From an uncultured beta proteobacterium (GTDB taxonomy: Bacteria > Pseudomonadota > Gammaproteobacteria > Burkholderiales > Nitrosomonadaceae), in contig OW818677.1 of the NCBI GenBank assembly GCA_942493155.1, positions 2,169,302 through 2,201,301 on the forward strand: 32,000 nucleotides of DNA, read 5' to 3'. Of this stretch, positions 12,671-27,757 are shown piece by piece (position 1 is the first letter of the stretch; the number at the start of each line of letters is the position of its first letter). Both the position numbers and the translations under genes were made by a program. The notes under the pieces were generated by a model. That model saw only the letters and a list, made by a program, of their open reading frames with translations. It had not been told where the DNA came from and did no database searches.

Positions 12671-13451
12671 AGTGCACGGTTTTTGGTGTTAATTCACATA
12701 TTTATGTGCACTATTCTACCAAAAAACAAAATATTAATAAATTCAATCAGCTAGTTATACTTTTTGAGTAAGCTCTAACTATGTATTCAATGGCACTCTA
12801 TGTGCTCTTCAAGGTAATGCTGAAAGTCGTGTTCCAACTGCCTCCGATTGGGATTCCAAGCAATCATTGCTGAATGATCAGCGCTTTGTACCTGAACTGA
12901 ATGAGAAGGGCGCGGATATTCCAACCGGCATACCCACCTTAACGCCCAACCAGAAAAAACAGCTCGGCCTTGATTCCGTACCTACCAAGGATTCAAGCGG
13001 CAATATCACAGGGCGCGAAGATACCACTACCGAAATTGAAGCCGTAGACGCTGGAACCTCTGATAATCCCGGCCGTGTCATCATCAAGGAAACTAAGACC
13101 ACGATTAAATATGACACCAACAACACGCAGATAAGCAGCACCACCAATACCAGCTACAGCTCTCAGCCACAAGAAAAAGAGCCGTCACAATTCACCATAT
13201 CATTCGACACCGTACCCGAAGCCACATTACCCAGTTACAGCGTCCCTAATACCTTCAACTCAGATAGTTGGGGTTCTGGCACTTGTCCGCCCAATATCGA
13301 CGTATCACTAACCAATCATTCTTTCACCATACCGACACAGCCAATCTGTGACACGGCGGAAATGATTAACCCATTTACGCTGTTACTGGCTTCAATCATC
13401 AGTGTCTACATTATCGCGGGGGTTCGTGGCGGCTCTGCCACGTAAAAAACT

Positions 13452-13742
13452 ATGTTCAATATCTTAATTCCTTTAGGTGCTTTTCTTTCGGCTGGTGTTG
13501 GTTTCCTTGCTGTACGTGCTTTGATGGGTGTAGGTGTCGGCTTAATCAGTTATGGCGCGGTCGGTGTTGTTCTGCAGCAGCTTCTAACCTTAGCGCAAGG
13601 CCATTACAACAACATTCCAGCATTCGCGCTGCAAATCGCCGGACTCTCAGGCATTGGCCAAGCGCTCGGCATGATCGCTGGTGCCATTACTTTCAGGGCT
13701 ACTTTTATGTTGATGTCTAAACTCGGAGTGATTCCAAAATGA
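13452..13742 (+). CDS. Inovirus g6p-like small membrane protein (DUF2523-like), unit A
   Basis: 96-aa hydrophobic protein directly upstream of zot, overlapping it by 4 nt. Differs from 22383-22673 at one residue. Confidence 0.7.
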   Translation: MFNILIPLGAFLSAGVGFLAVRALMGVGVGLISYGAVGVVLQQLLTLAQGHYNNIPAFALQIAGLSGIGQALGMIAGAITFRATFMLMSKLGVIPK

Positions 13743-14707: not shown

Positions 14708-14790
14708 AGGAATAATAAAACATACGTGAAAATTATGCTTTATTGAAACATGTCTTCAATCATTCCATAGCCAGAAAAAATCGAAGACAT

Positions 14791-14839
14791 GCTTATAGCT
14801 TATAGCTTATAGCTTATAGCTTATAGCTTATAGCTTATA
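14791..14839. repeat. Perfect heptanucleotide tandem repeat (GCTTATA)x7
   Basis: Read directly. Seven uninterrupted copies, preceded by an imperfect hairpin (CATGTCTTC...GAAGACATG). Confidence 0.95.
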
Positions 14840-14990
14840 GTTAAATATTAAAATTTAATACGGAAAAGAATCTTATATTTTCTAAAAAACTTACTTTTTT
14901 GTATTACATATAACAAATATAGTGTAATAATAGCGGAGATCTCCTATAAATGAGTAGTGAGCTCTACTCGGTAAAAAGGTGATTGTCTTA

Positions 14991-15024
14991 AAAAGCCGTA
15001 TTGCGTAAGCATTTCGGCTTTTTT
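14991..15024 (+). terminator. Terminator-like hairpin with T-run in the unit A intergenic region
   Basis: AAAAGCCG...CGGCTTTTTT, with an inner TGC-GTAA-GCA stem. Confidence 0.5.
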
Positions 15025-15055
15025 CATTTATGATTCTTTAAGAATCCATGCAATA

Positions 15056-15089
15056 GTAGCAGCAAATATCAGGTAGCAGCAAATATCAG
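15056..15089. repeat. Perfect 17-bp tandem direct repeat (GTAGCAGCAAATATCAG x2)
   Basis: Read directly. Possibly an iteron or protein-binding site. Confidence 0.9.
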
Positions 15090-15257
15090 GAATGCGCACA
15101 CAGTTTTTTACAATAAACATAAAAATAAACTTCAGAAGATAATCTCGCCACAAATTGTTGTGAATTTCAATAAGTTTCTAGATCTTTTAAACCGTAAAAT
15201 TTTTTAGCCTGTAGCCCCAAGGGTCGCGCCGCCGACCGGCGCGAAGGGTATGCACCC

Positions 15258-15328
15258 AAAAGGGGGCATGCTGCCCGATCCCTAACGCAGTCTATCTTTA
15301 TTCTGATTTCCCCCTTATTGCTAAACAG
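15258..15328. repeat. Copy 1 of an approximately 70-bp element shared by the two cargo regions
   Basis: AAAGGGGGCATGCTGCCCGATCCCTAACGCAGTCTATCTTTATTCTGATTTCC... aligns with 25365-25432 at roughly 80 percent identity by eye. A GC-rich hairpin (TCGCGCCG-CCGAC-CGGCGCGA, 15224-15244) precedes it. Confidence 0.8.
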
Positions 15329-15386
15329 AATTTGATTTTGATTCTGTGAGGTATAATCCTGGAAACAATCTTAAGAGGATAAAATC

Positions 15387-15593
15387 ATGGAGCTTTCCGC
15401 CGTATTAACACCAGCGCCAGAAGGTGGTTATGTTGCCTTCAATCCTGAAACCGGAACGACCACGCAAGGCGACACAGTTGAAGAAGCTTTGGCTAATTTG
15501 GCTGAGGCAACAGAACTCTTCCTTGAAGAATTTCCGATGACCATATCTGCCCGCTCATTATTGACAACCTTTCAAGTTGCAGAGCATGCCTAA
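15387..15593 (+). CDS. hicB: HicB-family antitoxin (UPF0150-type, 68 aa)
   Basis: PEGGYVAFNPE..GTTTQGDTVEEALANLAEA is HicB/UPF0150-like. The adjacent hicA remnant supports the call. Confidence 0.75.
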   Translation: MELSAVLTPAPEGGYVAFNPETGTTTQGDTVEEALANLAEATELFLEEFPMTISARSLLTTFQVAEHA

Positions 15594-15808
15594 ATTGCCT
15601 GTCATCTCAGCGGCAGAAGTGATTAGGGCGTTTGAACGATTAGGTTTTACCACATAGTACGCCAGCGAGGCAGCCATATCGTTCTTCGTAGGGGTTCTTC
15701 TGGCTGTGTTGTACCCAACATCGCGAACTGAAAACGGGAACTTTGAGCGGCGTGCTTAAGCAAGCCGGGGTATCTCCAGATGAATTCGTTAAAGCATTGC
15801 GTGCTTAA
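15586..15808 (+). pseudogene. hicA: hicA mRNA-interferase toxin gene, disrupted (one in-frame stop and at least two frame changes)
   Basis: Three frames give MPKLPVISAAEVIRAFERLGFTT*, VRQRGSHIVLRRG and HRELKTGTLSGVLKQAGVSPDEFVKALRA. Joined, they make a complete HicA. Confidence 0.8.
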
Positions 15809-15953
15809 TTTTCCTGTATTGAAAAACGTATTTATATTTTTGTTGCTCGTCTTTAATTTTTTATTTTTAGGACTTGCACAAATCTAGAGAATGCACCGCC
15901 AACGACGGAAAGATAGAAGTTGTAAATTTATGAATTTTGATTTGGGAGTCTTG

Positions 15954-17063
15954 ATGTCAAAATATGTAGAAGAACTGGAAACAGAATTAAACGATGAGCG
16001 TAATGTTGAAGATGAGGCTGCTGAAGATGAAGCGGAAACTTTTGGTCGCTATGATATCACTTCCTATGGAATAGATTTTGATGTCGCAGGTTTAGTCAGG
16101 AGAATCGAAAAAGGTTTAATTTTTATTCCACCTTTTCAGAGAAATTTCGTCTGGAAACTTCCTGAATCTTCTCGTTTAATAGAATCATTATTGTTAGGTT
16201 TACCAGTCCCAGGAATATTTTTAGCTCAAGAGGCAGATACTGGAAGAATGTTAGTTATAGATGGCCAACAAAGACTTTTATCCTTAAAATTCTTTTTTGA
16301 CGGGGTATTTAATCCTATAGAAGGCGAGAAAAGACAAAGAGTTTTTAAGCTATCGAAAGTTCAACCACAGTATGAAGGAAAGTCATATAAAGACCTTGCC
16401 CCAAATATTCAAAACGATTTAGAGAATTGCGTTATTCATGCGACTGTTGTAAAACAGGACGCTCCTGAAGATGACGACACTAGTATTTACCATATTTTTG
16501 AGCGCTTGAATTCAGGTGGAAGAAAATTATCTCAGCAAGAAATTAGAACCGCAATTTATCATGGAAATTTTATCAATAAAATTCATGATCTTAATTCTCA
16601 TAAATCATGGCGCCTTATTTATGGCCGCATCAACGATAGGATGAAGGATCAGGAGTTAATTATTCGCTTTTTTGCAATGTTAAATAACTATTCTTCATAC
16701 GAAGCTCCAATGTACGACTTTTTGAATAAATTTGCTAAGAAACATCGTAACGATAAAAATCAAATTCTAAGTGAGTACTCGGAACACTTTAAAGTTTGTT
16801 GTGATATTTTTCTAAAAGCCATTGATGGAAGACCATTTCGTCGAACCGTTGCAATTAATGTCGCATTATTCGAAGCTGCTATGGTAGCTCTTACAGAAAA
16901 AATACGCCGTGATGGCATACCAACTTCAGAAGTTGTTAGGAATAAATACAATGCTTTATTAATGGATAATGAATTTATTTCAGCTATTTCACAATCTACA
17001 GGCAATAAATCTACTGTACTCACTCGAATTGATACAGCAAAAAAAATATTCCTGAATGATTGA
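15954..17063 (+). CDS. DUF262 (ParB-like NTPase/nuclease superfamily, GmrSD N-terminal type) protein without a DUF1524 nuclease domain
   Basis: IPPFQRNFVW, VIDGQQRL and FERLNSGGRKLSQQEI are DUF262 hallmarks. ATG 15954 is preceded by GGGAG, and an upstream in-frame start at 15891 is possible. No H-x-x-P/HNH-like C-terminal motif was seen. Confidence 0.8.
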   Translation: MSKYVEELETELNDERNVEDEAAEDEAETFGRYDITSYGIDFDVAGLVRRIEKGLIFIPPFQRNFVWKLPESSRLIESLLLGLPVPGIFLAQEADTGRMLVIDGQQRLLSLKFFFDGVFNPIEGEKRQRVFKLSKVQPQYEGKSYKDLAPNIQNDLENCVIHATVVKQDAPEDDDTSIYHIFERLNSGGRKLSQQEIRTAIYHGNFINKIHDLNSHKSWRLIYGRINDRMKDQELIIRFFAMLNNYSSYEAPMYDFLNKFAKKHRNDKNQILSEYSEHFKVCCDIFLKAIDGRPFRRTVAINVALFEAAMVALTEKIRRDGIPTSEVVRNKYNALLMDNEFISAISQSTGNKSTVLTRIDTAKKIFLND

Positions 17064-17554
17064 TGAAAAACGTAAATCTTAATCAACAATATCAAAAGAT
17101 ATTGCATTTAATAAATAATACGGATAAATCTACTCATGGAGATATAGAGTTACAGGGACATTGGGGAAAGTATTTGTGCGTTCTAGTAGCAGGTTTTCTG
17201 GAGAATGCTATTATCGCCGTTTACTCAGATTTTGTTTCTGGCGCAGCATCTCCTCATGTCTCACAATTCACATTAGTAAACTTAGAAAAGATTCAAAACC
17301 CAAAGACTGAAAAATTTATACAAGTTGCTATTCAATTTAAGAAAGACTGGGGCGAGGAATTAAAAAATTATTTCATTAGTCATCCGGACAAAAAAGCAGC
17401 CATCGATTCGATTATGACTAATAGACATTTAGTTGCACATGGTAAATCAACAAGTATATCTGTACACAGAGTGAGAGAATATTTAACTCTCAGTATAGAG
17501 GTAATAGAATTTATAGAGGATATGTGTGCAAATAAAAAAAGCAAATTAAGATGA
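17063..17554 (+). CDS. HEPN-domain protein (MAE_28990-like), putative RNase effector
   Basis: Rx4H motif in TNRHLVAHG near the C-terminus. HWGKYLCVLVAGFLEN resembles the AHWEGF helix of MAE_28990-type HEPN domains. The start ATG overlaps the DUF262 stop (TGATG). Confidence 0.7.
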   Translation: MKNVNLNQQYQKILHLINNTDKSTHGDIELQGHWGKYLCVLVAGFLENAIIAVYSDFVSGAASPHVSQFTLVNLEKIQNPKTEKFIQVAIQFKKDWGEELKNYFISHPDKKAAIDSIMTNRHLVAHGKSTSISVHRVREYLTLSIEVIEFIEDMCANKKSKLR

Positions 17555-17559
17555 TTTGA

Positions 17560-17988
17560 CTAAAGAAAGCTTCTTTGTAATATCATTCCAAATCGGCTTT
17601 CAAGTACCAGCTGACGCCTATAAAAATCAGCCTTAATTTCAAGTCTATTAATTGCCTCGCTATGCTTCTCATTATCTTTTTTTAAAATTTCGATTTCACG
17701 TTTTAAACTAGAAACCTGCTGAACTTGCCAGAATAATGCCCTAATTTCATGAGGAGTTAGACCGCGCCGCCATTCGGGTATATATAATAGATTATTTCTG
17801 AAGTAGTGCCCATTCCAATCTGTACCCAATAAAGCACTCGCTTCACCTAGAATATACAATCTCAAGAGACGGGTTGCTGATTCTGAGATCTTCTTAGTTC
17901 CTTTTTTCCATTGCTTAATTGTTTTTTGACTTTCTCCTGTAATTCTTTCTATTTCTTGGCAGTCGATGTTTTTTATTAAATCTTCCAT
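17560..17988 (-). CDS. 142-aa phage regulatory protein (HTH-like N-terminus, coiled-coil C-terminus), last gene of unit A
   Basis: Gap-free paralogue of 26658-27086, with 91 of 142 residues identical by hand alignment. Shared blocks are EIERITGE, WKKGTK, RLLRL, PEWR, PHEIRALFW and KADFYRRQLVLESRFG. Confidence 0.6.
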   Translation of the reverse strand: MEDLIKNIDCQEIERITGESQKTIKQWKKGTKKISESATRLLRLYILGEASALLGTDWNGHYFRNNLLYIPEWRRGLTPHEIRALFWQVQQVSSLKREIEILKKDNEKHSEAINRLEIKADFYRRQLVLESRFGMILQRSFL

Positions 17989-18199
17989 TTTTTCTGCCTA
18001 AAGGCAACATCATTACAAAATTTTGGAAACTAATTCTGTCGAATAACGTAATGTTTAATATTGATTTTAAAGGTTTATATCACTTAATGGGTTTGGGGAT
18101 ATTCATCAAGATGTGAATATACTGGAAGAGTTGTTGAAGGGAATTTGAATCTGGGTAAAAGTTTATAAAATTTTCTGCTTTCAAAGCTGAGAATATATC

Positions 18200-18577
18200 C
18201 TATTTTACATAATACAAATTGATCTCACTCCCTTTTTCTGACATAGCAGCATGGGCAGGGGAGGAAGTCATTGAACTACCACCGAAAATTAATGCCGCCG
18301 CCGCTATAGTCGCAGCTCTAGAAAAACAACTTTTAAAAATTTTTATCTTTTCTTCGTCTTTCTCAGTAACAAGATTACTTGCAGCAATAACTTCAAGTCT
18401 ATCCGCACCAATATAGTCAGCGAGTTTTATACAAATATCTGCGGGCAAGCCTCTTCTTCCGCTTTTAACTATCCTTATATAACTATCTGGAATCCCTAGA
18501 ATTCTTGCTAATTCTATTTGCTTTCCGGCTTTTTCCTCACCCAATTCTAGGTATTTTTTCATTTCCATAGTATTCAT
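18200..18577 (-). CDS. XRE-family HTH repressor with a hydrophobic C-terminal segment
   Basis: QIELARILGIPDSYIRIVKSGRRGLP is a Cro/C1-type HTH. The gene is divergent from the replication operon. Its last nine codons lie inside the dif-like site. Confidence 0.75.
   Translation of the reverse strand: MNTMEMKKYLELGEEKAGKQIELARILGIPDSYIRIVKSGRRGLPADICIKLADYIGADRLEVIAASNLVTEKDEEKIKIFKSCFSRAATIAAAALIFGGSSMTSSPAHAAMSEKGSEINLYYVK
18202..18229 (-). other. dif-like Xer recombination site at the junction of units A and B
   Basis: The reverse complement is AGTGAGATCAA-TTTGTA-TTATGTAAAAT. Its XerD arm matches E. coli dif (TTATGTTAAAT) at 10 of 11 positions. Homology with the 27339 region stops exactly here. 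Confidence 0.65.
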
Positions 18578-18583
18578 GTCCTA

Positions 18584-18645
18584 TTGACAGTTACAAACGC
18601 AACTGATAATTTCAGTTACGTTTGTATCGGATCCATTTGTAACTG
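18584..18645 (+). promoter_or_regulatory. Divergent promoter/operator region of unit B
   Basis: TTGACA (18584-18589) and GATAAT (18605-18610). The motif CAGTTAC occurs three times: 18588 and 18613 direct, 18639 inverted. Each copy carries AAACG or CGTTT/TTTG flanks. Confidence 0.55.
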
Positions 18646-18697
18646 CATTTGTTCGCATATTACGGCTCAGATTTCCATAAGTCAAGGAAGGGTATTC

Positions 18698-18985
18698 ATG
18701 AGAAACATTAAAAATAGTTATTTTCGAGCAATTCATGAAGTAACTTGCAACGGTAAATTACCGGAGTATTCCGATTTGTGGCGCTGCTACCATCCTACTG
18801 CTTTGATGCTGGATAGCGATTATTGCCTATTTGCAGATTCAAGCCGGTTTTCGACGACGACGCAGGAGGAGGAGATAACCGGCAGCGCACCTAAAAAAAT
18901 ACTTTACGTCCCAGTTACACGTAAAGTTAGTCTCACAGATGAGACAAAAGAGCAAAAATTGAACGCTGGAATGATTCAAAGATGA
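18698..18985 (+). CDS. Hypothetical 95-aa phage protein upstream of Rep
   Basis: ATG preceded by AAGGAAG. Its stop overlaps the Rep start (ATGA). Confidence 0.5.
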   Translation: MRNIKNSYFRAIHEVTCNGKLPEYSDLWRCYHPTALMLDSDYCLFADSSRFSTTTQEEEITGSAPKKILYVPVTRKVSLTDETKEQKLNAGMIQR

Positions 18986-19992
18986 TGAATTTAATTCCTG
19001 TCTTTGTCGACTATTTAACTATCCGACAAGTGCATGACGGCGGCAAACTGCCAATCATTAATGGTGGTAGGGTGCTCAGAATTGATTCGGATGGCGAGAT
19101 TGAATATACCGTGGATACTCGGCAAGGCTTGGAAGGTAGTTTTGATAGCCGGGTAGAAGTTCGCTGTGATGGTCATCAAGTGGAATTCAGTGGCAATATT
19201 TCTCGCTATGGCCGACAAGATAATCTTTTCGGTTTTACTTTCGCGGATAGTATCGAACGGATTAATGAACTGCTAAAAACTCTGGGTTTGCCGCCTTTTA
19301 CTGCTGGCAAATTATACAAATTTGCTGATTCTGGCTGGACATGGACAGGTGCCAGAGTCAGCCGGATAGACATAACCTGCAATTATGTCACCGGCTCTAT
19401 GGTCGACTCCGAAGCATTACTCCGAAATATGGCAGGTCACCATATTGGCCGCCAAAAAGGCTCCCTAGCGGTTAATGGCGCAACAGTTGAATATGGCCGG
19501 GGTTCCAAATATGTTTACGGCAAACTCTACTGTAAAACCACTGAACTAAAAAAACACCGCTCCAAAAAATCCGGTCAACACGTCACTGAGGAAGTTATCG
19601 ACTTTTGCCAATCTCTCGGAGTAATACGAGAAGAGTTTACCCTTAAATCGCGCTTTCTTCTACAAAACGGCCTGGCTTTTCTAGGCGCAATAACCGACTC
19701 ATTATTGATTGAGGTTTATATGAACAGAACACAATTACAACGACTGGAGAACGTGAAATACGAGAATTTCAGCGATTTACCAGCACACCTAAGAGCAACG
19801 TATGTCAGTTGGAAATATGGTTACCCAATCGATCTTTCACGGGCTGCATTTTATCGTCATCGTAAAGCTTTGCTTTCCTACGGTATAGATATCTCCATTC
19901 CAAACAACGTTCAAACGATGCCAATTAAAGTGAAAACTATCGAACTGGCTGCACTTACAGCGCCTGACTGGTACATCAAGAAATACGCTTAA
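18982..19992 (+). CDS. Rolling-circle replication initiation protein (filamentous phage gene II/X, Phage_CRI-like)
   Basis: Call rests on position, size (336 aa), and N-terminal DYLTIRQ and RIDITCNY blocks resembling Phage_CRI-type initiators. Not verifiable without a search. Confidence 0.6.
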   Translation: MMNLIPVFVDYLTIRQVHDGGKLPIINGGRVLRIDSDGEIEYTVDTRQGLEGSFDSRVEVRCDGHQVEFSGNISRYGRQDNLFGFTFADSIERINELLKTLGLPPFTAGKLYKFADSGWTWTGARVSRIDITCNYVTGSMVDSEALLRNMAGHHIGRQKGSLAVNGATVEYGRGSKYVYGKLYCKTTELKKHRSKKSGQHVTEEVIDFCQSLGVIREEFTLKSRFLLQNGLAFLGAITDSLLIEVYMNRTQLQRLENVKYENFSDLPAHLRATYVSWKYGYPIDLSRAAFYRHRKALLSYGIDISIPNNVQTMPIKVKTIELAALTAPDWYIKKYA

Positions 19993-20067
19993 TTTTTAGT
20001 TTTACGCTCTGAATTCATTAACTGCCGGTTCAGATAAAGCGTTAATAGGTGGTGTTAAGGGGTTGTT

Positions 20068-20364
20068 ATGTTAGAGAAAGTAAAAGTGACAGGTATCACA
20101 TTCTTCAAAGATACCATCGACGGAAAGCCAATTGATTCAGGCGCGGCATTTGTTGAAGAACATTTGAATTTCCAGACGGGCAGGTCAAAGGGCACTGCAA
20201 CACAAAAATACCCGTTAGGCGATGCAGGCAAAGCACAAGCCCTGATGCACCTGGAATTTCCTCTGATCTGTGAAGTTGAATTTGTTCGTGTAACTAATGG
20301 CAATGTTTCCAAGAATATAATCAACTCAATTAAACCGGTTTCTCAAGTTAAACCTGCCGCGTGA
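20068..20364 (+). CDS. Putative ssDNA-binding protein (gene V analogue)
   Basis: 98-aa ORF between Rep and the major coat gene. The call is by position only. Confidence 0.4.
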   Translation: MLEKVKVTGITFFKDTIDGKPIDSGAAFVEEHLNFQTGRSKGTATQKYPLGDAGKAQALMHLEFPLICEVEFVRVTNGNVSKNIINSIKPVSQVKPAA

Positions 20365-20439
20365 TTTCAGCCTATACGCTCTTAGTTGGGGCGTATGGGG
20401 TGCAATTCCGCACCATTTAAACTTAAAGGAGTATTCAAT

Positions 20440-20715
20440 ATGTTTAGCAAAATAAAAAACTGGTTAATTTCTGCAAAAGACGCTGTGATAGCGCTCGGTC
20501 GCCGTGTAGTACAAAAAACCAAACGTTATGTTGCCGCTTTCTTCCTAACCTTCGGTATCACTTTTGGTTTTCTCTCTCCGGTTCACGCTGACGTACCCGC
20601 CGGTGTAACCACTGCCATCACAACCGCCGCAACCGATGTTGCAACCGTAGGTGCCGCCGTCATTCTCGTGTTCGTCGGCATCAAAGTCTGGAAATGGATT
20701 AAAGCCGCTCTGTAA
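20440..20715 (+). CDS. Inovirus major coat protein precursor
   Basis: ATG preceded by AAAGGAG. Leader ends in VHA. The predicted mature peptide is DVPAGVTTAITTAATDVATVGAAVILVFVGIKVWKWIKAAL: acidic N-terminus, hydrophobic core and basic C-terminus. Confidence 0.8.
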   Translation: MFSKIKNWLISAKDAVIALGRRVVQKTKRYVAAFFLTFGITFGFLSPVHADVPAGVTTAITTAATDVATVGAAVILVFVGIKVWKWIKAAL

Positions 20716-20716
20716 C

Positions 20717-21013
20717 ATGGCTTATCTGTATCAGGGAAAATGTCTTGATACCGTGCAGCGGCTACATGAATCTGTGGCCGCTGCATGTCCACCCGTATCC
20801 GGCAATTACTCCCTTCAATGTACGCCAACAAGCACGCAAGTCGATATTGTCGCTGCCGACCTCACGAACTCTATCATTTATTCCAGTGTGCTTGTTCCTC
20901 CTCAAATTCCCTGTGATGTAACCCTATTGGATCAAACCGCCTTTTACTGGCAATTAGTCGGCGTTTTGGTCGCGGGTTTCGCTATCCGGGCACTGATACA
21001 GGTCTTTAAATAA
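20717..21013 (+). CDS. Putative minor virion/membrane protein (98 aa, C-terminal TM helix)
   Basis: The ATG lies 1 nt after the coat gene stop. C-terminal YWQLVGVLVAGFAIRALIQVF. Confidence 0.5.
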   Translation: MAYLYQGKCLDTVQRLHESVAAACPPVSGNYSLQCTPTSTQVDIVAADLTNSIIYSSVLVPPQIPCDVTLLDQTAFYWQLVGVLVAGFAIRALIQVFK

Positions 21014-21087
21014 TGGAACTCTGGATTGTTGACTTGGGTTATATGCTGGCTTTCTTAGGTGCGCTATGGCTTATCTTTACCGCTTAA
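21013..21087 (+). CDS. Possible 24-aa hydrophobic minor coat protein (g7p/g9p-like micro-ORF)
   Basis: TAATG overlap with the preceding stop. Product is MELWIVDLGYMLAFLGALWLIFTA. Below the ORF-track size cut-off and found by hand. Confidence 0.3.
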   Translation: MELWIVDLGYMLAFLGALWLIFTA

Positions 21088-22376
21088 TAGTTATTTTAAT
21101 CATTGCATTACCAAACCTTGTTAATGCTCAATCTGCGCCAGTCGGTGCCATCGATCTGGCCGGATGGATCAAGGGCGCTGACGGTGCTTATTCTCGGGCT
21201 TTCGCTGATGGTGCCGGATCCAGAGCAACACCAACCAATTCCACAATAAATAGCACATCTACCGCGTTGGTTCAGACATCCAAAGGCTTGCAGTCCTTCG
21301 ATATCCAAAAAATTGCTGCTGTCGATGTGAACCGGGTAGGCGCCGCGGTGGCCAATTTAGCCAAGCGGGTTGGACCAGTCGGCATGACCTTGACGGCCGC
21401 ATCACTGGTTTGTGAACTGACTACTATCTGCAATCAAGCCGGACAATGGATGCTCGGTGCCGATCCTGCTTTTGAAGGTTTTCCAACCACAACACCAAAT
21501 TATAAATGGGGTGGTTATGGTGGTTATTATCCTAGCCCTGAAATAGCATGTAATGCTGCTGTGAAAGTCCATTATAACGGCGCATATTCTGCTAACCCTG
21601 CGCCTTACAATGGACAAGATAATTATTATGATTGTCATTATAAGGATGCTAATGGTAATCCTACTTATATTTCTGGCTATTCTCCCCGTTCGGCTGGTTG
21701 CCCTGATAACTATGTATTCAATGGCACTCTATGTGCTCTTCAAGGTAATGCTGAAAGTCGTGTTCCAACTGCCTCCGATTGGGATTCCAAGCAACCATTG
21801 CTGAATGATCAACGCTTTGTACCTGAACTGAACGAGAAGGGAGCGGATATCCCGACCGGCGTTCCCACATTAACGCCCAACCAAAAAAAGCAGCTTGGCC
21901 TTGATTCTGTTCCAACCAAAGACAGCAGCGGCAACATAACAGGGCGCGAAGATACCACTACCGAAATTGAAGCCGTAGACGCGGGAACCTCTGATAATCC
22001 CGGCCGCGTCATTATTAAGGAAACCAAGACCACGATCAAATATGACACCAATAATACGCAGATAAGCAGCACCACCAATACCAGCTACAGCTCGCAGCCA
22101 CAAGAAAAAGAGCCGCCACAATATACGATTTCATTTGATAGCGTGCCAGAAGCAACGCTTCCAAGTTACAGCGTACCCAATACCTTCAGTTCAGATAGTT
22201 GGGGCTCCGGCACTTGTCCGCCCAATATCGATGTATCGCTAACCAATCATTCTTTCACCATACCGACACAGCCAGTCTGTGACACGGCGGAAATGATTAA
22301 CCCTTTCACGCTTCTTTTGGCTTCAATCATCAGCGTCTACATTATCGCGGGGGTTCGTGGCGGCTCTGCTACGTAA
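21066..22376 (+). CDS. g3p-like minor coat/adsorption protein (intact copy)
   Basis: Signal peptide (LIIALPNLVNA), Cys-containing N-terminal domain, T/S/N-rich linker and C-terminal TM anchor (LLLASIISVYIIAGV). Lies upstream of g6p and zot. Confidence 0.7.
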   Translation: MAYLYRLIVILIIALPNLVNAQSAPVGAIDLAGWIKGADGAYSRAFADGAGSRATPTNSTINSTSTALVQTSKGLQSFDIQKIAAVDVNRVGAAVANLAKRVGPVGMTLTAASLVCELTTICNQAGQWMLGADPAFEGFPTTTPNYKWGGYGGYYPSPEIACNAAVKVHYNGAYSANPAPYNGQDNYYDCHYKDANGNPTYISGYSPRSAGCPDNYVFNGTLCALQGNAESRVPTASDWDSKQPLLNDQRFVPELNEKGADIPTGVPTLTPNQKKQLGLDSVPTKDSSGNITGREDTTTEIEAVDAGTSDNPGRVIIKETKTTIKYDTNNTQISSTTNTSYSSQPQEKEPPQYTISFDSVPEATLPSYSVPNTFSSDSWGSGTCPPNIDVSLTNHSFTIPTQPVCDTAEMINPFTLLLASIISVYIIAGVRGGSAT

Positions 22377-22382
22377 ATAACT

Positions 22383-22673
22383 ATGTTCAATATCTTAATT
22401 CCTTTAGGTGCATTTCTTTCGGCTGGTGTTGGCTTTCTAGCAATCCGTGCATTGATGGGCGTAGGTGTCGGCCTTATCAGTTATGGCGCGGTCGGTGTTG
22501 TCCTGCAGCAGCTTCTAACCTTGGCGCAAGGCCATTACAACAATATTCCAGCCTTCGCGCTGCAAATCGCCGGACTCTCTGGCATTGGCCAAGCGCTCGG
22601 CATGATCGCCGGTGCCATTACTTTCAGGGCTACTTTCATGTTGATGTCTAAACTCGGAGTGATTCCAAAATGA
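22383..22673 (+). CDS. Inovirus g6p-like small membrane protein (DUF2523-like), unit B
   Basis: 96-aa hydrophobic protein that overlaps the zot start. Confidence 0.7.
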   Translation: MFNILIPLGAFLSAGVGFLAIRALMGVGVGLISYGAVGVVLQQLLTLAQGHYNNIPAFALQIAGLSGIGQALGMIAGAITFRATFMLMSKLGVIPK

Positions 22674-23638
22674 CAATTATCGTTTTAACGGCTACGCCGG
22701 GCTGTGGCAAAACCAATCACGCGGTATGGAGGTATATAAAACCAGCGGTGGAAGTGGGGCGTGTTGTTTATGTTTGCGGTGTACCTGACTTAAAGCTCAT
22801 GCACATCAAGCTATCGATAAATAAGCTCAATACCTGGGCAGAACGCACACCCCTAGACCCGGAAGAACCGGAAGGAAAGCAAAAACTAAACAACATCTTG
22901 GAAGGTAGTCTTATTGTAGTGGATGAAGCTGCTTATCCGTGGCCGGCCGTTGACTTGAAAGACCCGCCCGAGCATATCAAATACCTAAGCCAACATAGAA
23001 AGCACGGCCTGGACTTCCTTGTTATTACTCAGTCACCGAAGTTTGTGCACCCGTTTGTACTGGAAAACGCTGATCGGCATATCCATTTAAGCCAAGAGTG
23101 GTCAGGCTCAAAAAGCTATGAATGGCCGGAGTACTGCGCCAATCCAAAGCTGAAAACCAACAAGCAGAATGCAGTCAAAAAGCCGTACCGGCTCATCAAA
23201 GAAGCATTCCCGCTGTATTACTCAGCAAGTCTGCATGTGGAAAAACCGAAGCGGGCGATACCTAAAATGGTCTATGCGGCAATTTTCCTGCTCTTTGCAG
23301 TGCCAGCTATGGCGATGTTCACTTATGGCCGTGTAACCGAGCGGCTTGAGTCTCAAATCGCATCCACAGAAACCGAAAAAAACACAATAGCGAAGCAGGG
23401 GGGTGATACGCCGTCAACAAGCGCAATACCGGTATCTCAGCCTGTCATTGCATTACCGAGTACAAAACAATCGCTCTCAATGCTTTCTGATGCGGTCGAT
23501 TGGTCGCAGGTCGCGGCCTGTGTGGAAAACAAAACCAACTGCGTTTGTTATGGGCATAAAGCGCAACGCTTATCCATTGTTCCGGAAACCTGCCAAGCGG
23601 CCGTGAAGTATGGATGGATTGATACTAAACAACTTTAA
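22670..23638 (+). CDS. Zot/pI-like filamentous phage assembly ATPase, unit B
   Basis: Walker A ATPGCGKT, Walker B LIVVDEA and a TM helix. Confidence 0.85.
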   Translation: MTIIVLTATPGCGKTNHAVWRYIKPAVEVGRVVYVCGVPDLKLMHIKLSINKLNTWAERTPLDPEEPEGKQKLNNILEGSLIVVDEAAYPWPAVDLKDPPEHIKYLSQHRKHGLDFLVITQSPKFVHPFVLENADRHIHLSQEWSGSKSYEWPEYCANPKLKTNKQNAVKKPYRLIKEAFPLYYSASLHVEKPKRAIPKMVYAAIFLLFAVPAMAMFTYGRVTERLESQIASTETEKNTIAKQGGDTPSTSAIPVSQPVIALPSTKQSLSMLSDAVDWSQVAACVENKTNCVCYGHKAQRLSIVPETCQAAVKYGWIDTKQL

Positions 23639-23648
23639 AGGAGTAATT

Positions 23649-23819
23649 ATGAAACAGACGCAGGAAAGATTTAATTATCTAATGGAAACACTTGATGAGC
23701 AGAGAATGTCAATTCTTCTTGATGACTTAACACCCGAGGAAAGAGAAGCTACCAATGCAATAATTGCCGATCTTGAAGCAGAACTCGAAGAATATGGTTT
23801 AAATATCTCCAGTAGCTGA
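23649..23819 (+). CDS. Small, strongly acidic 56-aa protein
   Basis: ATG preceded by AAAGGAG. Product is MKQTQERFNYLMETLDEQRMSILLDDLTPEEREATNAIIADLEAELEEYGLNISSS. Unit A keeps only a degenerate trace of its 5' end (14708-14730). Confidence 0.5.
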   Translation: MKQTQERFNYLMETLDEQRMSILLDDLTPEEREATNAIIADLEAELEEYGLNISSS

Positions 23820-23895
23820 TATCCGAAGAAGGTTCCGAGGCTTGACCGAAGGTCAAACGTAGGAATTCCGGATTCAGCGTCAACGGGTTACAACT

Positions 23896-23925
23896 GGCGC
23901 TCGGCCATGCCGAGCCGCCGCTTTT
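23896..23925 (+). terminator. GC-rich hairpin followed by a T-rich tract after the structural operon
   Basis: GGCGCTCGG-CCATG-CCGAGC(C)GCC, then GCTTTTACGTTT. A smaller hairpin, TTGACC-GAA-GGTCAA, lies at 23842-23856. Confidence 0.5.
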
Positions 23926-24121
23926 ACGTTTAAAATCCCCTTTTTTTACAGAACGGTTTATATTTCATGTTGCTGCGGTAAAAATCCATTCTTTGCTCTT
24001 GCTTGTTAAACCAAGTTTCGTCCTAAATATCGATTCTATTTTTGAAATGCAATTTTAAATTCCATCAGAATTGTTATCATGTAATATCGCATTATCTTTG
24101 TATCTTCAATGAGGCGATCAT

Positions 24122-24850
24122 TTGTTAATTGAGTCCCTGGAGTCATTACGATCTCGCGTTATCACTGACTTTTGTGCAGTAATGGAGTTTAAGCTTTACA
24201 CCGACCTCGCCTACATATTAAGTGGAGAATATACAAAATCAATTCCTGGGGGTGAATTTATTATTGACTATCCAGCTATTGCTCCGTTTCTCAGCCTTGC
24301 ACCAAATATAATTAACCCATATGAATTGCCTCATCGCCTCGAACAAGCTAAAAATAGCTACCTGTTACTACTTGTTCATCAACAACAGGTTGCGATATTT
24401 GAGAACTCTTTCTTCGATATACTGCGCACTCTATTTATTGATCAACCATTAAGGTTACCCAATAAACAGCGTCAAATTGAATATTCCATAATTATCAATG
24501 CTCAAGATAAAGATGAGATTATTTTTGCCCTTATTGAAAAAGAAATAAACGAAATTAAATATAAAAATGTTAAAGATTGGTTTAAATACTTAGAAAATCT
24601 TGTTTCCAAATATAAGATTACCGACTCTGATCTGGGACGAATCGCGGAAGCAAAAGCAACACGTGATTTATTTGCACACAATGCTGGAATCGTAAACGAA
24701 ATCTATTTACAAAAGGCCGGAAATTTTGCGCGCTTTAAAATTGGTGAGAGCGTTTCAGTAGAAGGAGATTATATGCGCGATACTTGGGTAGTATTTTCAA
24801 GGGTGTTGATCTTAATTTTAGATCTTCTTATAAAAAAATATAAAACTTAG
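24122..24850 (+). CDS. HEPN-like protein with Rx4H motif (242 aa), cargo of unit B
   Basis: ATRDLFAHNAG gives R-x4-H followed by N. The upstream helix VAIFENSFFDIL is in the same relative place as HWGKYLCVLVAGF in the 17063 protein. TTG start is preceded by GAGG, and ATG 24182 is an alternative. Confidence 0.55.
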   Translation: MLIESLESLRSRVITDFCAVMEFKLYTDLAYILSGEYTKSIPGGEFIIDYPAIAPFLSLAPNIINPYELPHRLEQAKNSYLLLLVHQQQVAIFENSFFDILRTLFIDQPLRLPNKQRQIEYSIIINAQDKDEIIFALIEKEINEIKYKNVKDWFKYLENLVSKYKITDSDLGRIAEAKATRDLFAHNAGIVNEIYLQKAGNFARFKIGESVSVEGDYMRDTWVVFSRVLILILDLLIKKYKT

Positions 24851-24916
24851 ACAAATAATATTGCTTTAACTGAACTCTTTTTTACATGTAAGCTATATCT
24901 AATTGGTATTTCTACA

Positions 24917-25336
24917 ATGACAAGACCTTCAATTTCATTTTTTGTATTGATTATGATGCTATTGACTATTAATCCGGCGCTAGCGCTGTCAGATTATAGG
25001 TGTTTGATTCAAAGAATCATAACAGCAGAGGAGCAGTCACAAAAGCTAACATTTTATGAAAAAAATTACTTAAATAAAGAATTTACCGTTGAGCGAAGTA
25101 CTGGATTAATGGCTGGCGCTTTGAAGAACTCATACGTCACAAAGCCTCAAGTCATTGATTATGGCTCACATGAAAATTCATTTAAAGTTATAACAACCAT
25201 GCGCTTAGAGCAAGGTGTCGGCTTGGGATCGAATGTATATATGCTCACTATTAACGAATATTCTGAATCCTCAAAGAAGCCCTTTGTTTTTATCGATAAT
25301 GATGTTGTTTACCTTGGAGAATGTGTCCATTTTTAG
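24917..25336 (+). CDS. Secreted/periplasmic hypothetical protein (139 aa)
   Basis: Signal peptide FFVLIMMLLTINPALA-LS. Two cysteines. No motif recognised. Confidence 0.5.
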   Translation: MTRPSISFFVLIMMLLTINPALALSDYRCLIQRIITAEEQSQKLTFYEKNYLNKEFTVERSTGLMAGALKNSYVTKPQVIDYGSHENSFKVITTMRLEQGVGLGSNVYMLTINEYSESSKKPFVFIDNDVVYLGECVHF

Positions 25337-25364
25337 AGCTACAGCTCGAAGTGTATTCTCCCTA

Positions 25365-25432
25365 AAGGGTGCATGCTGTCCGATCCCTAACTCGGTTTAT
25401 CTTTATTCTGACTTCCTCATTTTGCTGAACGA
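25365..25432. repeat. Copy 2 of the approximately 70-bp element shared by the two cargo regions
   Basis: AAAGGGTGCATGCTGTCCGATCCCTAACTCGGTTTATCTTTATTCTGACTTCC... aligns with 15258-15328. Confidence 0.8.
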
Positions 25433-25482
25433 TTTTATTAATAAAGCAAACAAACATCAGTAATAATTTGCACAAGAATTAT

Positions 25483-25608
25483 TTATTTCTTGGGTATATG
25501 ATCCCTAACGAGACGTGGAGATGGTGGTGGAGGTGGAGGCGGTGGTGATGAGGTTTTATGATCACCTCCCGAGGGGTTTGATGGAGGTTTTTTTTGATTA
25601 TCAGTCAT
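25483..25608 (-). CDS. 41-aa polyproline micro-ORF (MTDNQKKPPSNPSGGDHKTSSPPPPPPPPSPRLVRDHIPKK)
   Basis: Hand translation. It starts 9 nt after the previous micro-ORF. The two start contexts are near-identical (AAAACAAAATGA). No clear Shine-Dalgarno sequence. Confidence 0.3.
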   Translation of the reverse strand: MTDNQKKPPSNPSGGDHKTSSPPPPPPPPSPRLVRDHIPKK

Positions 25609-25617
25609 TTTGTTTTA

Positions 25618-25755
25618 TTACTTAGGTTGTATAAGATTTCCGGGCTTTTTAACTATTTCTACACCTTCTTTAATTTGTCTCATAGCAGGTGGAGGTGGAG
25701 GTGGAGGAGCTGCATTAGGTTTTTTTATCGCGGAGTTTTCCTTAGTATCATTCAT
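25618..25755 (-). CDS. 45-aa polyproline micro-ORF (MNDTKENSAIKKPNAAPPPPPPPAMRQIKEGVEIVKKPGNLIQPK)
   Basis: Hand translation. Its ATG overlaps the stop of the upstream membrane-protein gene (ATGA). AAGGA lies 10 nt upstream. Confidence 0.4.
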   Translation of the reverse strand: MNDTKENSAIKKPNAAPPPPPPPAMRQIKEGVEIVKKPGNLIQPK

Positions 25756-26477
25756 TTTGTTTTTTCCTTTTGCTCATTTTTCAACTTATCGTTTGAAATA
25801 GCAGTCTCTAAATTTTCTTGACTTTTTTTAGTGAGCTCCAAAATTGCGTTTGATAAAACATCTGCTGATTCTCGAAGGGATATTATATTACCATCATTTA
25901 GTGTAATGGGACTAATAACTGAAACTTGAGAAATTTTTGTGCTCTGATCTTTTTCAAGATTACCTAAAAAAAAAGCAAGAAATGATATAAATGCAATTGC
26001 CACTGTATAGACAATTTGTCTATTTGTTTTATGAAGATTTAGCAAACGGAGATCGTTGTTTCGAGTATTTATTGATGAACATTCAACATAACTTCTCATT
26101 AAAAATTCCGTAAAATATTTGGAAGCCAAATCTACATCTTCAGAATATGGCTGATACATTTCTATAAGTTTATTACGATATTCTTCAGTCTCACATGCTG
26201 TTGGTAAAAATGAATATGTATAGTTGTACCATGATCTTATAAAAAAGAATATTGCACTTATCAAAATTGAAAATGTGATCGCTATTGATATTAAAAAAAT
26301 AATTTCAGCAGTAGAATATGATTTATGTTCATAATTCTGCAATAAAAAAGATAGCAACCCTACAATGGAAATAATAATGGTTAAAGGTATTTGTAATCGA
26401 GAGTTTAATTTTTCCCTTGTTTCTATTTCATGAAAGTACAATTTTTCATAGAGTTCAATAACTTGTTTTTTTTGCAT
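25752..26477 (-). CDS. Three-TM membrane protein of unknown function (241 aa), cargo of unit B
   Basis: TM helices are LTIIISIVGLLSFLL, IIFLISIAITFSILISAIFFFI and IVYTVAIAFISFLAFFLG, with a soluble insert between TM2 and TM3. Very AT-rich. Confidence 0.6.
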   Translation of the reverse strand: MQKKQVIELYEKLYFHEIETREKLNSRLQIPLTIIISIVGLLSFLLQNYEHKSYSTAEIIFLISIAITFSILISAIFFFIRSWYNYTYSFLPTACETEEYRNKLIEMYQPYSEDVDLASKYFTEFLMRSYVECSSINTRNNDLRLLNLHKTNRQIVYTVAIAFISFLAFFLGNLEKDQSTKISQVSVISPITLNDGNIISLRESADVLSNAILELTKKSQENLETAISNDKLKNEQKEKTK

Positions 26478-26657
26478 TATTTTTATATTATTTTTAAAAT
26501 TTAATTGCTCAAGGATATCAAATATGTGATTAACTTTGTAACTGCTTGTAATCTAGTCGTCGATGCAATATAAATAGTGGAATGATTAAACACACAGAAA
26601 CTTTTCCCTTCCATATGGTCATGGTTAAGGATTTTCTAAGCGTGCTCCGTGATTTTG

Positions 26658-27086
26658 TTAAGAAAAACTCTTATGCAAAATCCACCCGAACCGACTTTCA
26701 AGCACCAACTGCCGCCTATAGAAATCAGCTTTAACCTCAAGATTATTAATAACTTCATCACGCTTTTCCATTTCCAGCTTCAAAAAATCAATTTCTCGCT
26801 GTAAGCTCCAAATCTGCTGACATTTCCAGAATAAAGCCCTTATCTCATGCGGTGCAAATCCATTCCGCCACTCAGGAACATAAAACAAATTACCCACGAA
26901 GCGATATCCTTTCCATTCATCACCCAATAAAGCACTTGCATCACCAGTAAGATGCAGCCTTAAAAGCCTTAGCGTTGATTCTGGAATTGGCTTAGTTCCT
27001 TTTTTCCATTTCTTAATTACTTTTAGTTCTTCACCGGTAATTCTTTCTATTTCTTCTATGTTGATGCCATATAGTAGCTCGTTCAT
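26658..27086 (-). CDS. 142-aa phage regulatory protein, last gene of unit B (paralogue of 17560-17988)
   Basis: Gap-free alignment with 17560-17988, 91 of 142 residues identical. Confidence 0.6.
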   Translation of the reverse strand: MNELLYGINIEEIERITGEELKVIKKWKKGTKPIPESTLRLLRLHLTGDASALLGDEWKGYRFVGNLFYVPEWRNGFAPHEIRALFWKCQQIWSLQREIDFLKLEMEKRDEVINNLEVKADFYRRQLVLESRFGWILHKSFS

Positions 27087-27338
27087 TTTCTCAACCTAAA
27101 AGTAAAAACCAATCATTGCAAATTTCAAATGGTTTTCATTTCGATAAAAGAGACACGACAAGCAACGTATTCAGAAGTTGTTATTGCTTGTCGGATATGG
27201 GGATATTGAATGTGGAATGTTATTTTGAAAGGGTGGACAAATGATCAAAGCTGGTATTTTTGCACCCGTTGAGAAGCCTATCTAGGAATTCAGAAAATTT
27301 ATCGTATTTTCTGCGGAATTTATTTCTACGATTATTCA

Positions 27339-27366
27339 ATTTAACATAATACAAATTATCGGCAAT
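27339..27366 (-). other. dif-like Xer recombination site at the right end of the prophage array (possibly the reconstituted chromosomal dif)
   Basis: The reverse complement is ATTGCCGATAA-TTTGTA-TTATGTTAAAT. The XerD arm matches E. coli dif at 11 of 11 positions, and the whole site matches GGTGCGCATAATGTATATTATGTTAAAT at 22 of 28. Confidence 0.65.
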
Positions 27367-27592
27367 TACTTTATAATTTTTGCGGAATAGTTTTGCTCCA
27401 GACAGGATTTAAAAATGTTTTGTTATTTTGTAAATAGGCATTCTTTGCATTTTATGGAAATTCTGCAATTTCTCGGCTTCAATAGTTTCTGGATCAATGT
27501 TTTTTTATGGCTTCCGGTCAAGCTGTCTTTGCTTGAATTGAGGTTCAAGTATGGCTTTTTGGAAAATTACCTAGAAGAAAGGAAGAAGCCAA

Positions 27593-27757
27593 ATGAATCA
27601 GCGCAAGGAAAACATCAAGCCAGTTCTAGCGCGTAGCTATGCCGCAGCACATGGTTTGCGAGTTGGTCAAGTCATTCACTACTGCAGAACTGGAAAGATT
27701 AGCGGCGCGCGCTTTGATCGCGATTTGTGGCAATGGGTTTTACACCCACCTATATAG
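27593..27757 (+). CDS. Possible 54-aa small DNA-binding protein (excisionase/MerR-like HTH?)
   Basis: Hand-found ORF, MNQRKENIKPVLARSYAAAHGLRVGQVIHYCRTGKISGARFDRDLWQWVLHPPI, preceded by AGGAAG. Lies between the dif-like site and the RND genes. Confidence 0.3.
   Translation: MNQRKENIKPVLARSYAAAHGLRVGQVIHYCRTGKISGARFDRDLWQWVLHPPI

Follow-up and report, generated by a model that had tools for sequence, protein, structure and literature searches.

Are two short open reading frames (ORFs), each built around an uninterrupted run of prolines, genuine genes, and if so, what would a small membrane protein encoded directly in front of them do with such peptides? This question is raised by a locus at positions 25,483 to 26,477 of a 32,000-nucleotide (nt) stretch from an uncultured beta proteobacterium of the Nitrosomonadaceae (contig OW818677.1, assembly GCA_942493155.1); this whole stretch is called the window below. 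An earlier note on its sequence had described the locus as a cargo operon of a three-helix membrane protein followed by two tandem polyproline micro-ORFs. Comparison across the family of the membrane protein reveals that one to three polyproline peptides are linked to its gene in 50 of 51 loci, and the small ORFs carry the marks of protein-coding genes. The reading we prefer, at a rough probability of 0.42, is that the module would be a self-contained, horizontally mobile membrane effector together with its cognate polyproline partner peptides, serving defence or conflict. The locus consists of the following parts.

25752..26477, minus strand: membrane protein gene, 241 amino acids (aa), helical, three transmembrane (TM) helices; ORF call
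25618..25755, minus strand: gene of polyproline microprotein A ("micro-ORF 1"), 45 aa, MNDTKENSAIKKPNAAPPPPPPPAMRQIKEGVEIVKKPGNLIQPK; ORF call
25483..25608, minus strand: gene of polyproline microprotein B, 41 aa, MTDNQKKPPSNPSGGDHKTSSPPPPPPPPSPRLVRDHIPKK; ORF call
25687..25707, no strand assigned: perfect hexanucleotide repeat in the proline run of A, (AGGTGG)3.5 on the plus strand and CCTCCA on the coding strand; Tandem Repeats Finder
25515..25547, no strand assigned: imperfect hexamer/trimer array in the proline run of B; Tandem Repeats Finder

The ORF calls reproduce exactly the three ORFs of the earlier note, the seven and eight prolines, the overlap and the short gap. Peptide A has its seven consecutive prolines within 'AAPPPPPPPAM', peptide B its eight within 'SSPPPPPPPPSP'. 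The ATG of peptide A and the TGA of the membrane protein gene overlap as ATGA, with A in the -1 frame; AAGGA is located 9 nt 5' of the start of A, and another 9 nt separate the TAA of A from the start of B. The start contexts of A and B, AAAACAAAATGA(A/C)TGATA, are identical at 17 of 18 positions and were rightly called near-identical. The duplication that had been suggested from this likeness holds insofar as A and B are paralogues, but it is ancient and family-wide rather than local. B belongs to a type in which the proline run is followed by x-R-L-V-[KR]-[DG] and which is a separate gene in most loci. In public collections the A protein of the window is listed with 45 or 47 aa, and the B gene is already called in two of the related loci (L029 and L030). 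Eight otherwise identical 1.36-kb copies of the window locus, taken from different samples, differ solely by one CCTCCA unit, which gives seven or nine prolines in A; the length of the A hexamer repeat is thus polymorphic while the frame is always kept. Among the near-identical peptides of five further loci (L068-L072) runs of 8, 9 or 10 prolines are found.

All peptides of the family can be described by one motif, M-[SAT]-[ND]-x-K…P(5-24)-x-R-x-[IV]-[KR]-[EDG], which corresponds to a short polar N-terminus, a rigid run of 5-24 prolines, a conserved motif and a Lys/Pro-rich end. One or two residues past the run stands a nearly invariant Arg, followed two positions on by a hydrophobic residue, then Lys or Arg, and then Glu, Asp or Gly; it is in this part after the run, R-x-[IV]-[KR]-[EDG], that the peptides are most strongly conserved. 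The proline codons are a mixture of CCA, CCG, CCT and CCC that differs between loci, therefore the protein and not a DNA repeat is conserved. For separate B genes 16 pairwise comparisons, with synonymous divergence (dS) from 0.3 to >1, gave ratios of nonsynonymous to synonymous divergence (dN/dS) of 0.02-0.22. Nearly every peptide start is preceded by a Shine-Dalgarno (SD)-like motif 4-9 nt upstream. Neither a signal peptide nor a hydrophobic segment was found in free A and B. Judged by reading frame, start signals and purifying selection, the small ORFs are protein-coding. The same codon, selection and start-signal evidence leads us to reject a microsatellite and to regard a pseudogene as unlikely. 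The earlier note had treated repeats that are absent or out of frame in homologous loci as the sign of a non-coding microsatellite; what we find across homologues are in-frame runs with mixed codons under selection.

For the comparison of arrangements the DNA of 24 genome loci and 57 metagenome loci was taken and the sequence after the core of the membrane protein was classified. The 51 loci with at least 700 nt beyond the core are distributed as follows.

A fused in frame to the membrane protein, B separate: 19 of 51 loci
two separate peptides, as in the window: 11 of 51 loci
a single separate peptide: 12 of 51 loci
a single separate peptide with an interrupted run (PPPTPPPP): 3 of 51 loci
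fused A alone: 3 of 51 loci
three separate peptides: 2 of 51 loci
no peptide: 1 of 51 loci (L024, the most divergent homologue)

That the micro-ORFs travel with the membrane protein, which had been proposed as a check among homologues, is therefore borne out in 50 of these loci, and the linked loci come from Beta-, Gamma- and Deltaproteobacteria, Magnetococcales and Campylobacterota. Because of this recurrence, the mixed proline codons and the purifying selection on the separate small ORF, the three-ORF arrangement goes beyond chance. Peptide B is, by the gene structures compared, nearly always a separate gene.

The relation of peptide A to the membrane protein is closer. Most homologues carry in frame a C-terminal '…M-x-x-x-K…PPPPPPPPP-x-RQIREGVE(V/I)VKP…', which is the sequence of micro-ORF A, and among representatives chosen one per cluster at 50% identity a fused tail is present in 36 of 147, nearly always after Met or Val. 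Peptide A is this C-terminal tail, which may be fused in frame or, as in the window, stand apart as an ORF of its own. The two micro-ORFs that had been predicted are hence real coding units, but A is a detached family tail and not a free-standing invention. In at least 13 loci from several lineages A is split off in another frame; it then has an SD-like motif and an ATG of its own, and the frame varies by locus. A small ORF is also found at two distant plasmid or chromid homologues (29-37% identity), in Pseudomonas syringae PP3 and Photobacterium DA100; it is not listed for either record in the gene tables of PLSDB, which are incomplete. The P. syringae plasmid copy adjoins a tyrosine recombinase.

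What happens to the start of peptide A in a fused gene is informative. In all 29 of 29 fused genes an ATG or GTG is retained in frame at a distance of 6-25 codons from the start of the run, with an SD-like motif (GGAGG/AGGAG type) 3-12 nt before it; elsewhere in the same genes such a motif accompanies 5.8% of the other core codons and 1% of the other in-frame ATG/GTG codons (binomial p ~1e-36 for the internal motif, a value inflated by the relatedness of the loci). The conserved residues 'NGGNM' and 'KGxxM' are this internal ribosome-binding site read as protein. Because both SD-like motif and start codon are kept, we conclude that peptide A is also made in free form at loci where the membrane protein carries it as a tail, and since this holds for every fused gene, the tethered copy is probably no substitute for the free peptide.

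A recent switch between fused and separate is seen in two Herbaspirillum loci, L021 and L023, where 'LEK*MSETKK' stands against 'LEKSMSETKK', a stop against a Ser between the membrane protein gene and the polyproline ORF. In seven other sequences (L014, L018, P0036, P0047, P0048, P0051, P0053) seemingly threonine/serine-rich tails are wrong-frame read-through over a polyproline gene in the +1 frame, and the small genes under these T-rich tails lack annotation. A metagenome contig of 95 kb (JGI24728J21555_1000036, with loci L038-L041) contains four copies of the module 24.9 kb apart; it looks like the concatemeric assembly of a circular element of ~24.9 kb, a plasmid or phage, which bears the module.

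For the membrane protein the earlier note had described two closely spaced TM helices, a soluble insert and a third TM helix, and both hydropathy and an AlphaFold2 (AF2) model agree with this three-TM shape. The model of the 241-aa protein has a mean predicted local distance difference test score (pLDDT) of 84, with residues 1-175 mostly >90. It consists of an N-terminal helix (3-27), TM1 (29-47), TM2 (56-83), a helical soluble part (94-152, with a helix at 94-107) and TM3 at ~153-171, which is the end of a single long helix (114-171); residues 176-198 are disordered and 199-240 form a helix of low confidence. The family core comprises residues 1 to ~196, and 197-241 are a lineage-specific extension. 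In homologues a conserved segment 'TEVSIVxPVxLxG' follows TM3. Residues conserved in at least 75% of 148 diverse members (Y10, E11, Y14, F15, H16, E17, R21, R27, Q29, P31, F61, Y88, P92, Y100, L104, Y108, N137, N141, R144) are located on two helices, the N-terminal one and the long one in its part directly ahead of TM3. Judged by the distribution of charges, this conserved face would lie on the cytoplasmic side, beside the membrane. The number of lysines plus arginines (K+R) is 2.9 on the N-terminal side vs 0.7 in the loop between TM1 and TM2, and 2.5 before vs 2.4 after TM3, so that the positive-inside rule gives a clear answer for the hairpin of TM1 and TM2 and an ambiguous one for TM3.

A word-indexed search gave 55 homologues with 30-55% identity. 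With a profile built from polyproline-free members, 2,399 clusters (at 50% identity) were found at E<=1e-3 and 1,506 at E<=1e-10. The one significant profile match is PHROG 36961, which is without annotated function (E 1.7e-13, residues 7-172 vs 7-175 of the 245 profile positions). No curated family in Pfam, NCBIfam or PADLOC covers any of the three proteins, with sub-threshold or spurious matches at best; in PADLOC-DB 2.0 the 241-aa protein has only a spurious match to MTase_II (E 1e-4), and A and B have none. A Megablast search with the region gave no match among E. coli genomes or GenBank phages, and neither Foldseek against PDB and BFVD nor a hidden Markov model search of the PDB sequences returned anything at E<=0.1. 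The family is large and uncurated, and its modelled fold appears confident but unusual.

How then does the module compare with known systems? SLATT proteins are predicted pore-forming toxins or effectors of defence systems (bioRxiv 10.64898/2026.04.29.721553). With the SLATT effectors of cyclic-oligonucleotide-based antiphage signalling systems (CBASS), DRT3 and DRT10 the window protein may share, going by its AF2 model, the plan of a small helical membrane protein in which a conserved cytoplasmic N-helix leads to a tight hairpin of two TM helices with further helices after it; both kinds of protein occur on mobile elements and near defence genes. It differs by its third TM helix, and in 25 loci no conserved nucleotide-signalling or reverse-transcriptase (RT) partner (SMODS, SLOG, RT) was found near the module. 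We know of no polyproline peptide partners of SLATT proteins. With the profiles used (NCBIfam NF033632 and NF033634; Pfam DUF4231 and SLATT_1-6), all SLATT scores stayed below threshold: the window protein reaches 12.7 bits against SLATT_1 (cut-off 41) and the homologue P0005 reaches 15.8 bits against SLATT_4, where the cut-off is 55. Among the NCBIfam models it is SLATT_4 that is matched most often, again sub-threshold, with 18 of 148 members (best E 5.8e-5), and DUF4231 is matched by four of 148. Because the scores are far below the cut-offs, a third TM helix is present and SLATT partners are missing, membership in SLATT is not established. Weak matches to the octameric membrane protein family 8xMP (Pfam PF24838) were obtained for 28 of 148 members (best E 3.4e-4) and cover most of the profile; the score of the window protein is 12.5 bits, where 30 would be needed. 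A paper on the 8xMP family was not found in the literature.

In their layout the three genes resemble toxin-antitoxin (TA) and abortive-infection (Abi) cassettes, with which they share the compact form of two to three genes, a variable context, translational coupling, a small partner downstream and a prophage accessory slot that elsewhere holds a defence gene. The difference lies in the partner, which here is a polyproline peptide and is often covalently fused to the membrane protein. To our knowledge no TA or Abi family has such a fused polyproline partner, and none was found in PADLOC, NCBIfam or the literature.

As the proposed mechanism, the microproteins would be binding partners or regulators of the three-TM inner-membrane protein. 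The invariant aromatic and charged face (Y10/Y14/F15/H16, E11/E17, R21/R27, N137/N141/R144) at the interface between cytoplasm and membrane may be their docking site. Aromatic-rich surfaces are a known mode of binding polyproline-II helices, and for this reason the aromatic/acidic face is our candidate. The membrane protein might then be an effector that disturbs the membrane, with the peptides determining whether it fires, and the whole could act as a conflict device by abortive infection, toxin-antitoxin-like addiction or exclusion. A conflict context is also given by a gene similar to NsnA and PD-T4-2A, which occupies the same slot in the sister prophage described below. The likeness to SLATT, the top NCBIfam signal although weak and sub-threshold, points in the same direction. 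More speculatively, the supply of peptides may report the translational state and couple effector activity to translation, because translation through 7-24 prolines in a row is slow and requires EF-P. A narrower version, in which a pore-forming or membrane-perturbing three-TM effector is checked or armed by the EF-P-dependent peptides and is triggered when infection or stress impairs elongation through proline runs and so depletes them, would have translational capacity as the sensed signal and make the module a new, widespread class for immunity or addiction; we hold this version to be rather unlikely.

The genes next to the module could support such a role. The immediate neighbours vary, from gyrB to GGDEF proteins, and all-vs-all comparison of ORFs in 24 loci and the window revealed no neighbour family common to at least three loci; the module appears to be self-contained, with no other conserved gene. 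In a survey of 130 ORFs within two genes of the module at 38 loci we found restriction-modification genes (MmeI-type IIG, three; type I methylases, two; NgoMIV with a C5 methylase) as well as GajA and GajB, a CBASS 4TM effector, caspases (two), AriA (two) and IS91 transposases (two). The share of defence and mobility genes is roughly one ORF in eight, as estimated from family counts and not from per-locus tables. Since no relative was found among IMG/VR contigs or GenBank phages, the defence-island signal is moderate.

Several observations weigh against an effector with partner peptides for conflict. Many loci adjoin housekeeping genes (gyrB, an FAD-binding dehydrogenase, an ABC-2 permease), and neither a scan of 2.9 million viral contigs of IMG/VR nor the phages of GenBank yielded a relative. 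The matches to SLATT and 8xMP, far below their cut-offs, are comparable to those of unrelated membrane families (DUF2721, tetraspanin), and for that reason these signals may reflect TM composition alone. In an AF2 monomer of a fused homologue the tail is disordered (pLDDT 38-60), and a monomer is uninformative on docking. There is a topology conflict: with the N-terminus predicted inside and three TM helices, a fused tail would be periplasmic and free A and B cytoplasmic. Finally, the run length of 5-24, and of 7-9 among identical copies, suits a spacer as well as stalling.

It is from the topology that the strongest alternative starts, namely an envelope-structural role in which the proline run is a rigid periplasmic spacer after TM3, similar to TonB or TolA, and serves anchoring, sensing or receptor masking, with no suicide effector involved; the free peptides would be exported, perhaps via the membrane protein itself. 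Formally, the charge distribution given above and three hydrophobic helices do put the C-terminus outside, the segment 'TEVSIVxPVxLxG' after TM3 is conserved, fused tails are common, and there are weak matches to PRIMA1, a proline-rich membrane anchor. However, free A and B have neither signal peptide nor hydrophobic segment, the internal SD-like motif and ATG are kept in all fused genes, the segment after TM3 is as rich in K/R as the one before it, and runs of five prolines would cover little of the periplasm. We consider this explanation unlikely, although it is the best of the rivals.

If the peptides themselves were the weapon, A and B would be cationic, similar to proline-rich antimicrobial peptides (PrAMPs), and hit the ribosome or DnaK of a competitor or host, with the membrane protein as immunity or export partner. 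They are indeed short, contain 25-45% Pro, are strongly basic and have R/K beside the run, and tandem peptide genes with a small membrane protein resemble two-peptide bacteriocin loci. But no leader peptide, processing site, dedicated transporter or other conserved neighbour was found, known PrAMP motifs (PRP repeats) are not similar, and A is frequently fused covalently to the membrane protein, as one would hardly expect of a diffusible toxin. This makes a peptide toxin improbable.

The leader-like regulators proposed in the earlier note correspond to a role in cis, where EF-P-dependent stalling on the runs controls mRNA fate or expression and the peptide products are functionless. Runs of 7-24 prolines are among the strongest stallers known, and the coupling by ATGA overlap and 9-nt spacer is tight. 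Yet the only conserved gene stands upstream of these ORFs, nothing conserved comes after them, their best-conserved part is past the run and not yet made at the stall, and the low dN/dS extends over the whole B peptide. We therefore find leader-like regulation quite improbable.

Even less can be said for decay, by which a frameshift and an insertion would have broken a single gene in the window, so that A is a dead tail remnant and the locus a pseudogene. A is homologous to the fused tail, and the window keeps a relic of the ancestral junction ('LNDGNII' vs 'LNGGNMS'), followed by 45 residues without counterpart in homologues. But a split A in another frame, with its own start signals, recurs in at least 13 loci, the eight independent 1.36-kb copies are identical save for the in-frame hexamer, and A of the window keeps the full motif and the ATGA coupling, which leaves decay very improbable. 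That the GGTGGA-type repeats are merely slippage products of a non-coding microsatellite can practically be dismissed, for in spite of the perfect hexamer repeat and its polymorphic length, the runs remain conserved from phylum to phylum although their codons are heterogeneous and they have no DNA repeat in common, and always lie within an ORF with a start codon, almost always with an SD-like motif, under purifying selection.

Two further ideas were set aside. A programmed -1 frameshift at A_AAA_TGA, which would join the 241-aa ORF to A, is conceivable but unnecessary, as every split A has an SD-like motif and ATG and the frame varies. A WH2-like actin-binding motif ('PPPP…RQIREGVEVVK' vs 'LLDQIREGAQLKKV' of N-WASP) lacks the hydrophobic N-terminal half of a WH2 helix; the type-B peptides show no such likeness, and the hosts are free-living bacteria.

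Returning to the reading as effector with partner peptides, two known cases illustrate what a proline run could do. In PRAD-WAT assemblies (ColQ or PRiMA with acetylcholinesterase) consecutive prolines also stand beside a membrane anchor, and their polyproline-II helix is the core for aromatic-rich partner helices; the core of the module protein has invariant aromatics. PRAD-WAT is however eukaryotic and extracellular and has no homology to the module, and it is the proline run that produces the weak PRIMA1 matches of family members. For the module, an assembly role of the run is suggested only by this analogy. Consecutive prolines need EF-P, and the copy number of such proteins is then set by translation. 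EF-P-dependent proteins of the CadC type have two to three consecutive prolines in otherwise ordinary proteins, whereas in the module runs of 5-24 prolines form the centre of dedicated proteins of 30-55 aa. The literature searched held no account of polyproline microproteins that accompany a membrane protein. The arrangement, which the earlier note did not know from any described system, matches no curated family or defence model, and the module appears undescribed as far as the databases and literature searched tell.

The earlier note had further placed the genes in prophage cargo. This is correct for the copy in the window, which lies between dif-like sites of an inovirus, but the family is mostly chromosomal or plasmid-borne, and no relative was found in IMG/VR. 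From the gene content described here the module is accessory cargo of a dif-integrating inovirus prophage of the Xer/XafT type (integrative mobile element exploiting Xer, IMEX) in a Nitrosomonas-like genome, and this inovirus is one vehicle among several. The features around the module are the following.

26658..27086, minus strand: gene of a XafT-like (VC1465-family) Xer recombination activation factor, 142 aa, 180 nt upstream of the module on the same strand; NCBIfam NF040522, E 5.7e-7, below the curated cut-off
27339..27366, minus strand: dif-like site ATTGCCGATAATTTGTATTATGTTAAAT, right boundary (att) of the module prophage
18202..18229, minus strand: degenerate dif-like site (…GATCAATTTGTATTATGTAAAAT), left boundary of the module prophage, upstream of the other XafT-like gene
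25344..25421, no strand assigned: 78-nt conserved element, repeat D3' (78-88 nt), inner edge of the accessory slot; copy at 15239-15316 in the sister prophage, 83% identity
15387..17554, plus strand: cargo of the sister prophage in the equivalent slot, with a HicB-like 68-aa ORF, a DUF262 protein and a 164-aa Rx4H protein; outside the module

Genes of Zot-type filamentous phages occur twice in the window, and the region 10800-27400 is an array of two related inovirus prophages at a site that resembles the chromosomal dif region. The cumulative GC skew has its maximum near 7-8 kb, compatible with a replication terminus nearby. The left, older sister prophage is truncated by an insertion sequence (IS; transposase ORFs at 11058-12670), which leaves a partial pIII (12867-13445), pVI and Zot (13739-14707). 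The right prophage is complete, with a repressor-like gene (18200-18577), Rep (18982-19992), coat genes, pIII, pVI and Zot (22670-23638), and because dif-like sites flank it, it is taken to extend from ~18.2 to 27.37 kb. Zot matches PF05707 and DUF2523 is also present; Rep belongs to phrog_702 (E 1.4e-61), and its nearest relatives among GenBank inoviruses are from Vibrio cyclitrophicus (35% identity). Left of the IS and the prophage array, 10001-11000 is of low GC (32% vs ~45% around it), with an 85-aa ORF at 10440-10697.

The module is placed between the 78-nt element and the XafT-like gene. A paralogue of the latter is located at 17560-17988 in the sister prophage (70% DNA identity to 17563-18002), and the dif-like sites lie ~220-250 nt upstream of each XafT-like gene. 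A search with the canonical gammaproteobacterial dif gave no match within three mismatches; the divergent dif-like site was then spotted by eye and confirmed. We take the sites to be dif-like from their resemblance to the dif consensus, with the XerD arm TTATGTTAAAT. The D3 repeat was also considered as a hairpin or terminator, an idea that was dropped, as its two copies share no conserved stable fold.

In the equivalent slot of the sister prophage the DUF262 protein (15891-17063) matches NsnA (E 1.3e-75) and PD-T4-2_A (E 1.8e-59) in PADLOC. The 164-aa protein after it contains an Rx4H (HEPN-like) motif, 'NRHLVAH', and the pair is probably a two-gene defence system of the older prophage. The 68-aa ORF at 15387-15593 is HicB-like by eye; PADLOC gave no match. 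Two more cargo genes are found at the 3' end of the complete prophage (24122-25336), neither of them in a curated family: the first encodes a protein of 242 aa that contains 'ATRDLFAH' as its Rx4H motif and matches CARF-HEPN weakly (E 1.4e-3), the second one of 139 aa with a signal-like hydrophobic N-terminal segment.

Two related prophages with different cargo in the same slot are also what is known from the accessory (moron, defence) slots of phages and satellites. With Xer-dependent IMEX elements such as TLC-phi with XafT the window prophage shares dif-like flanks, a XafT-like factor and variable cargo beside the factor gene. These likenesses concern the location of the module in the window genome and not its nature, as the family is mostly found outside phages. 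Several metagenomic contigs match positions 21752-27751 at 98-99% identity, which breaks off at 27751; the best named relatives of the adjacent AcrB-type gene are from Nitrosomonas (72-77% identity). In three loci from other samples (L025-L027), beyond the point that matches 27751, the prophage end abuts not the AcrB operon but another element encoding DUF3653 (XafT-type) and small proteins, which suggests that several Xer-dependent elements are stacked at one site.

Whatever the function of the module, annotation probably overlooks or misreads tens of thousands of genes of this kind, for proteins of 30-55 aa: the protein collection searched has no B, and in many records A is hidden in the out-of-frame 'T-rich tail' of the upstream ORF. 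Likewise, the family provides a clean case in nature of two genes that have been fused and separated time and again while an internal translation start was kept. If the reading as an effector with partner peptides is true, the module would be the first of its kind, a system with dedicated polyproline microproteins at its centre, and it would give extreme EF-P-dependent sequences a physiological role beyond the tuning of copy number. A large family, with at least 1,500 clusters at 50% identity and E<=1e-10, would then join the membrane effectors that are carried on mobile elements, filamentous phages included.

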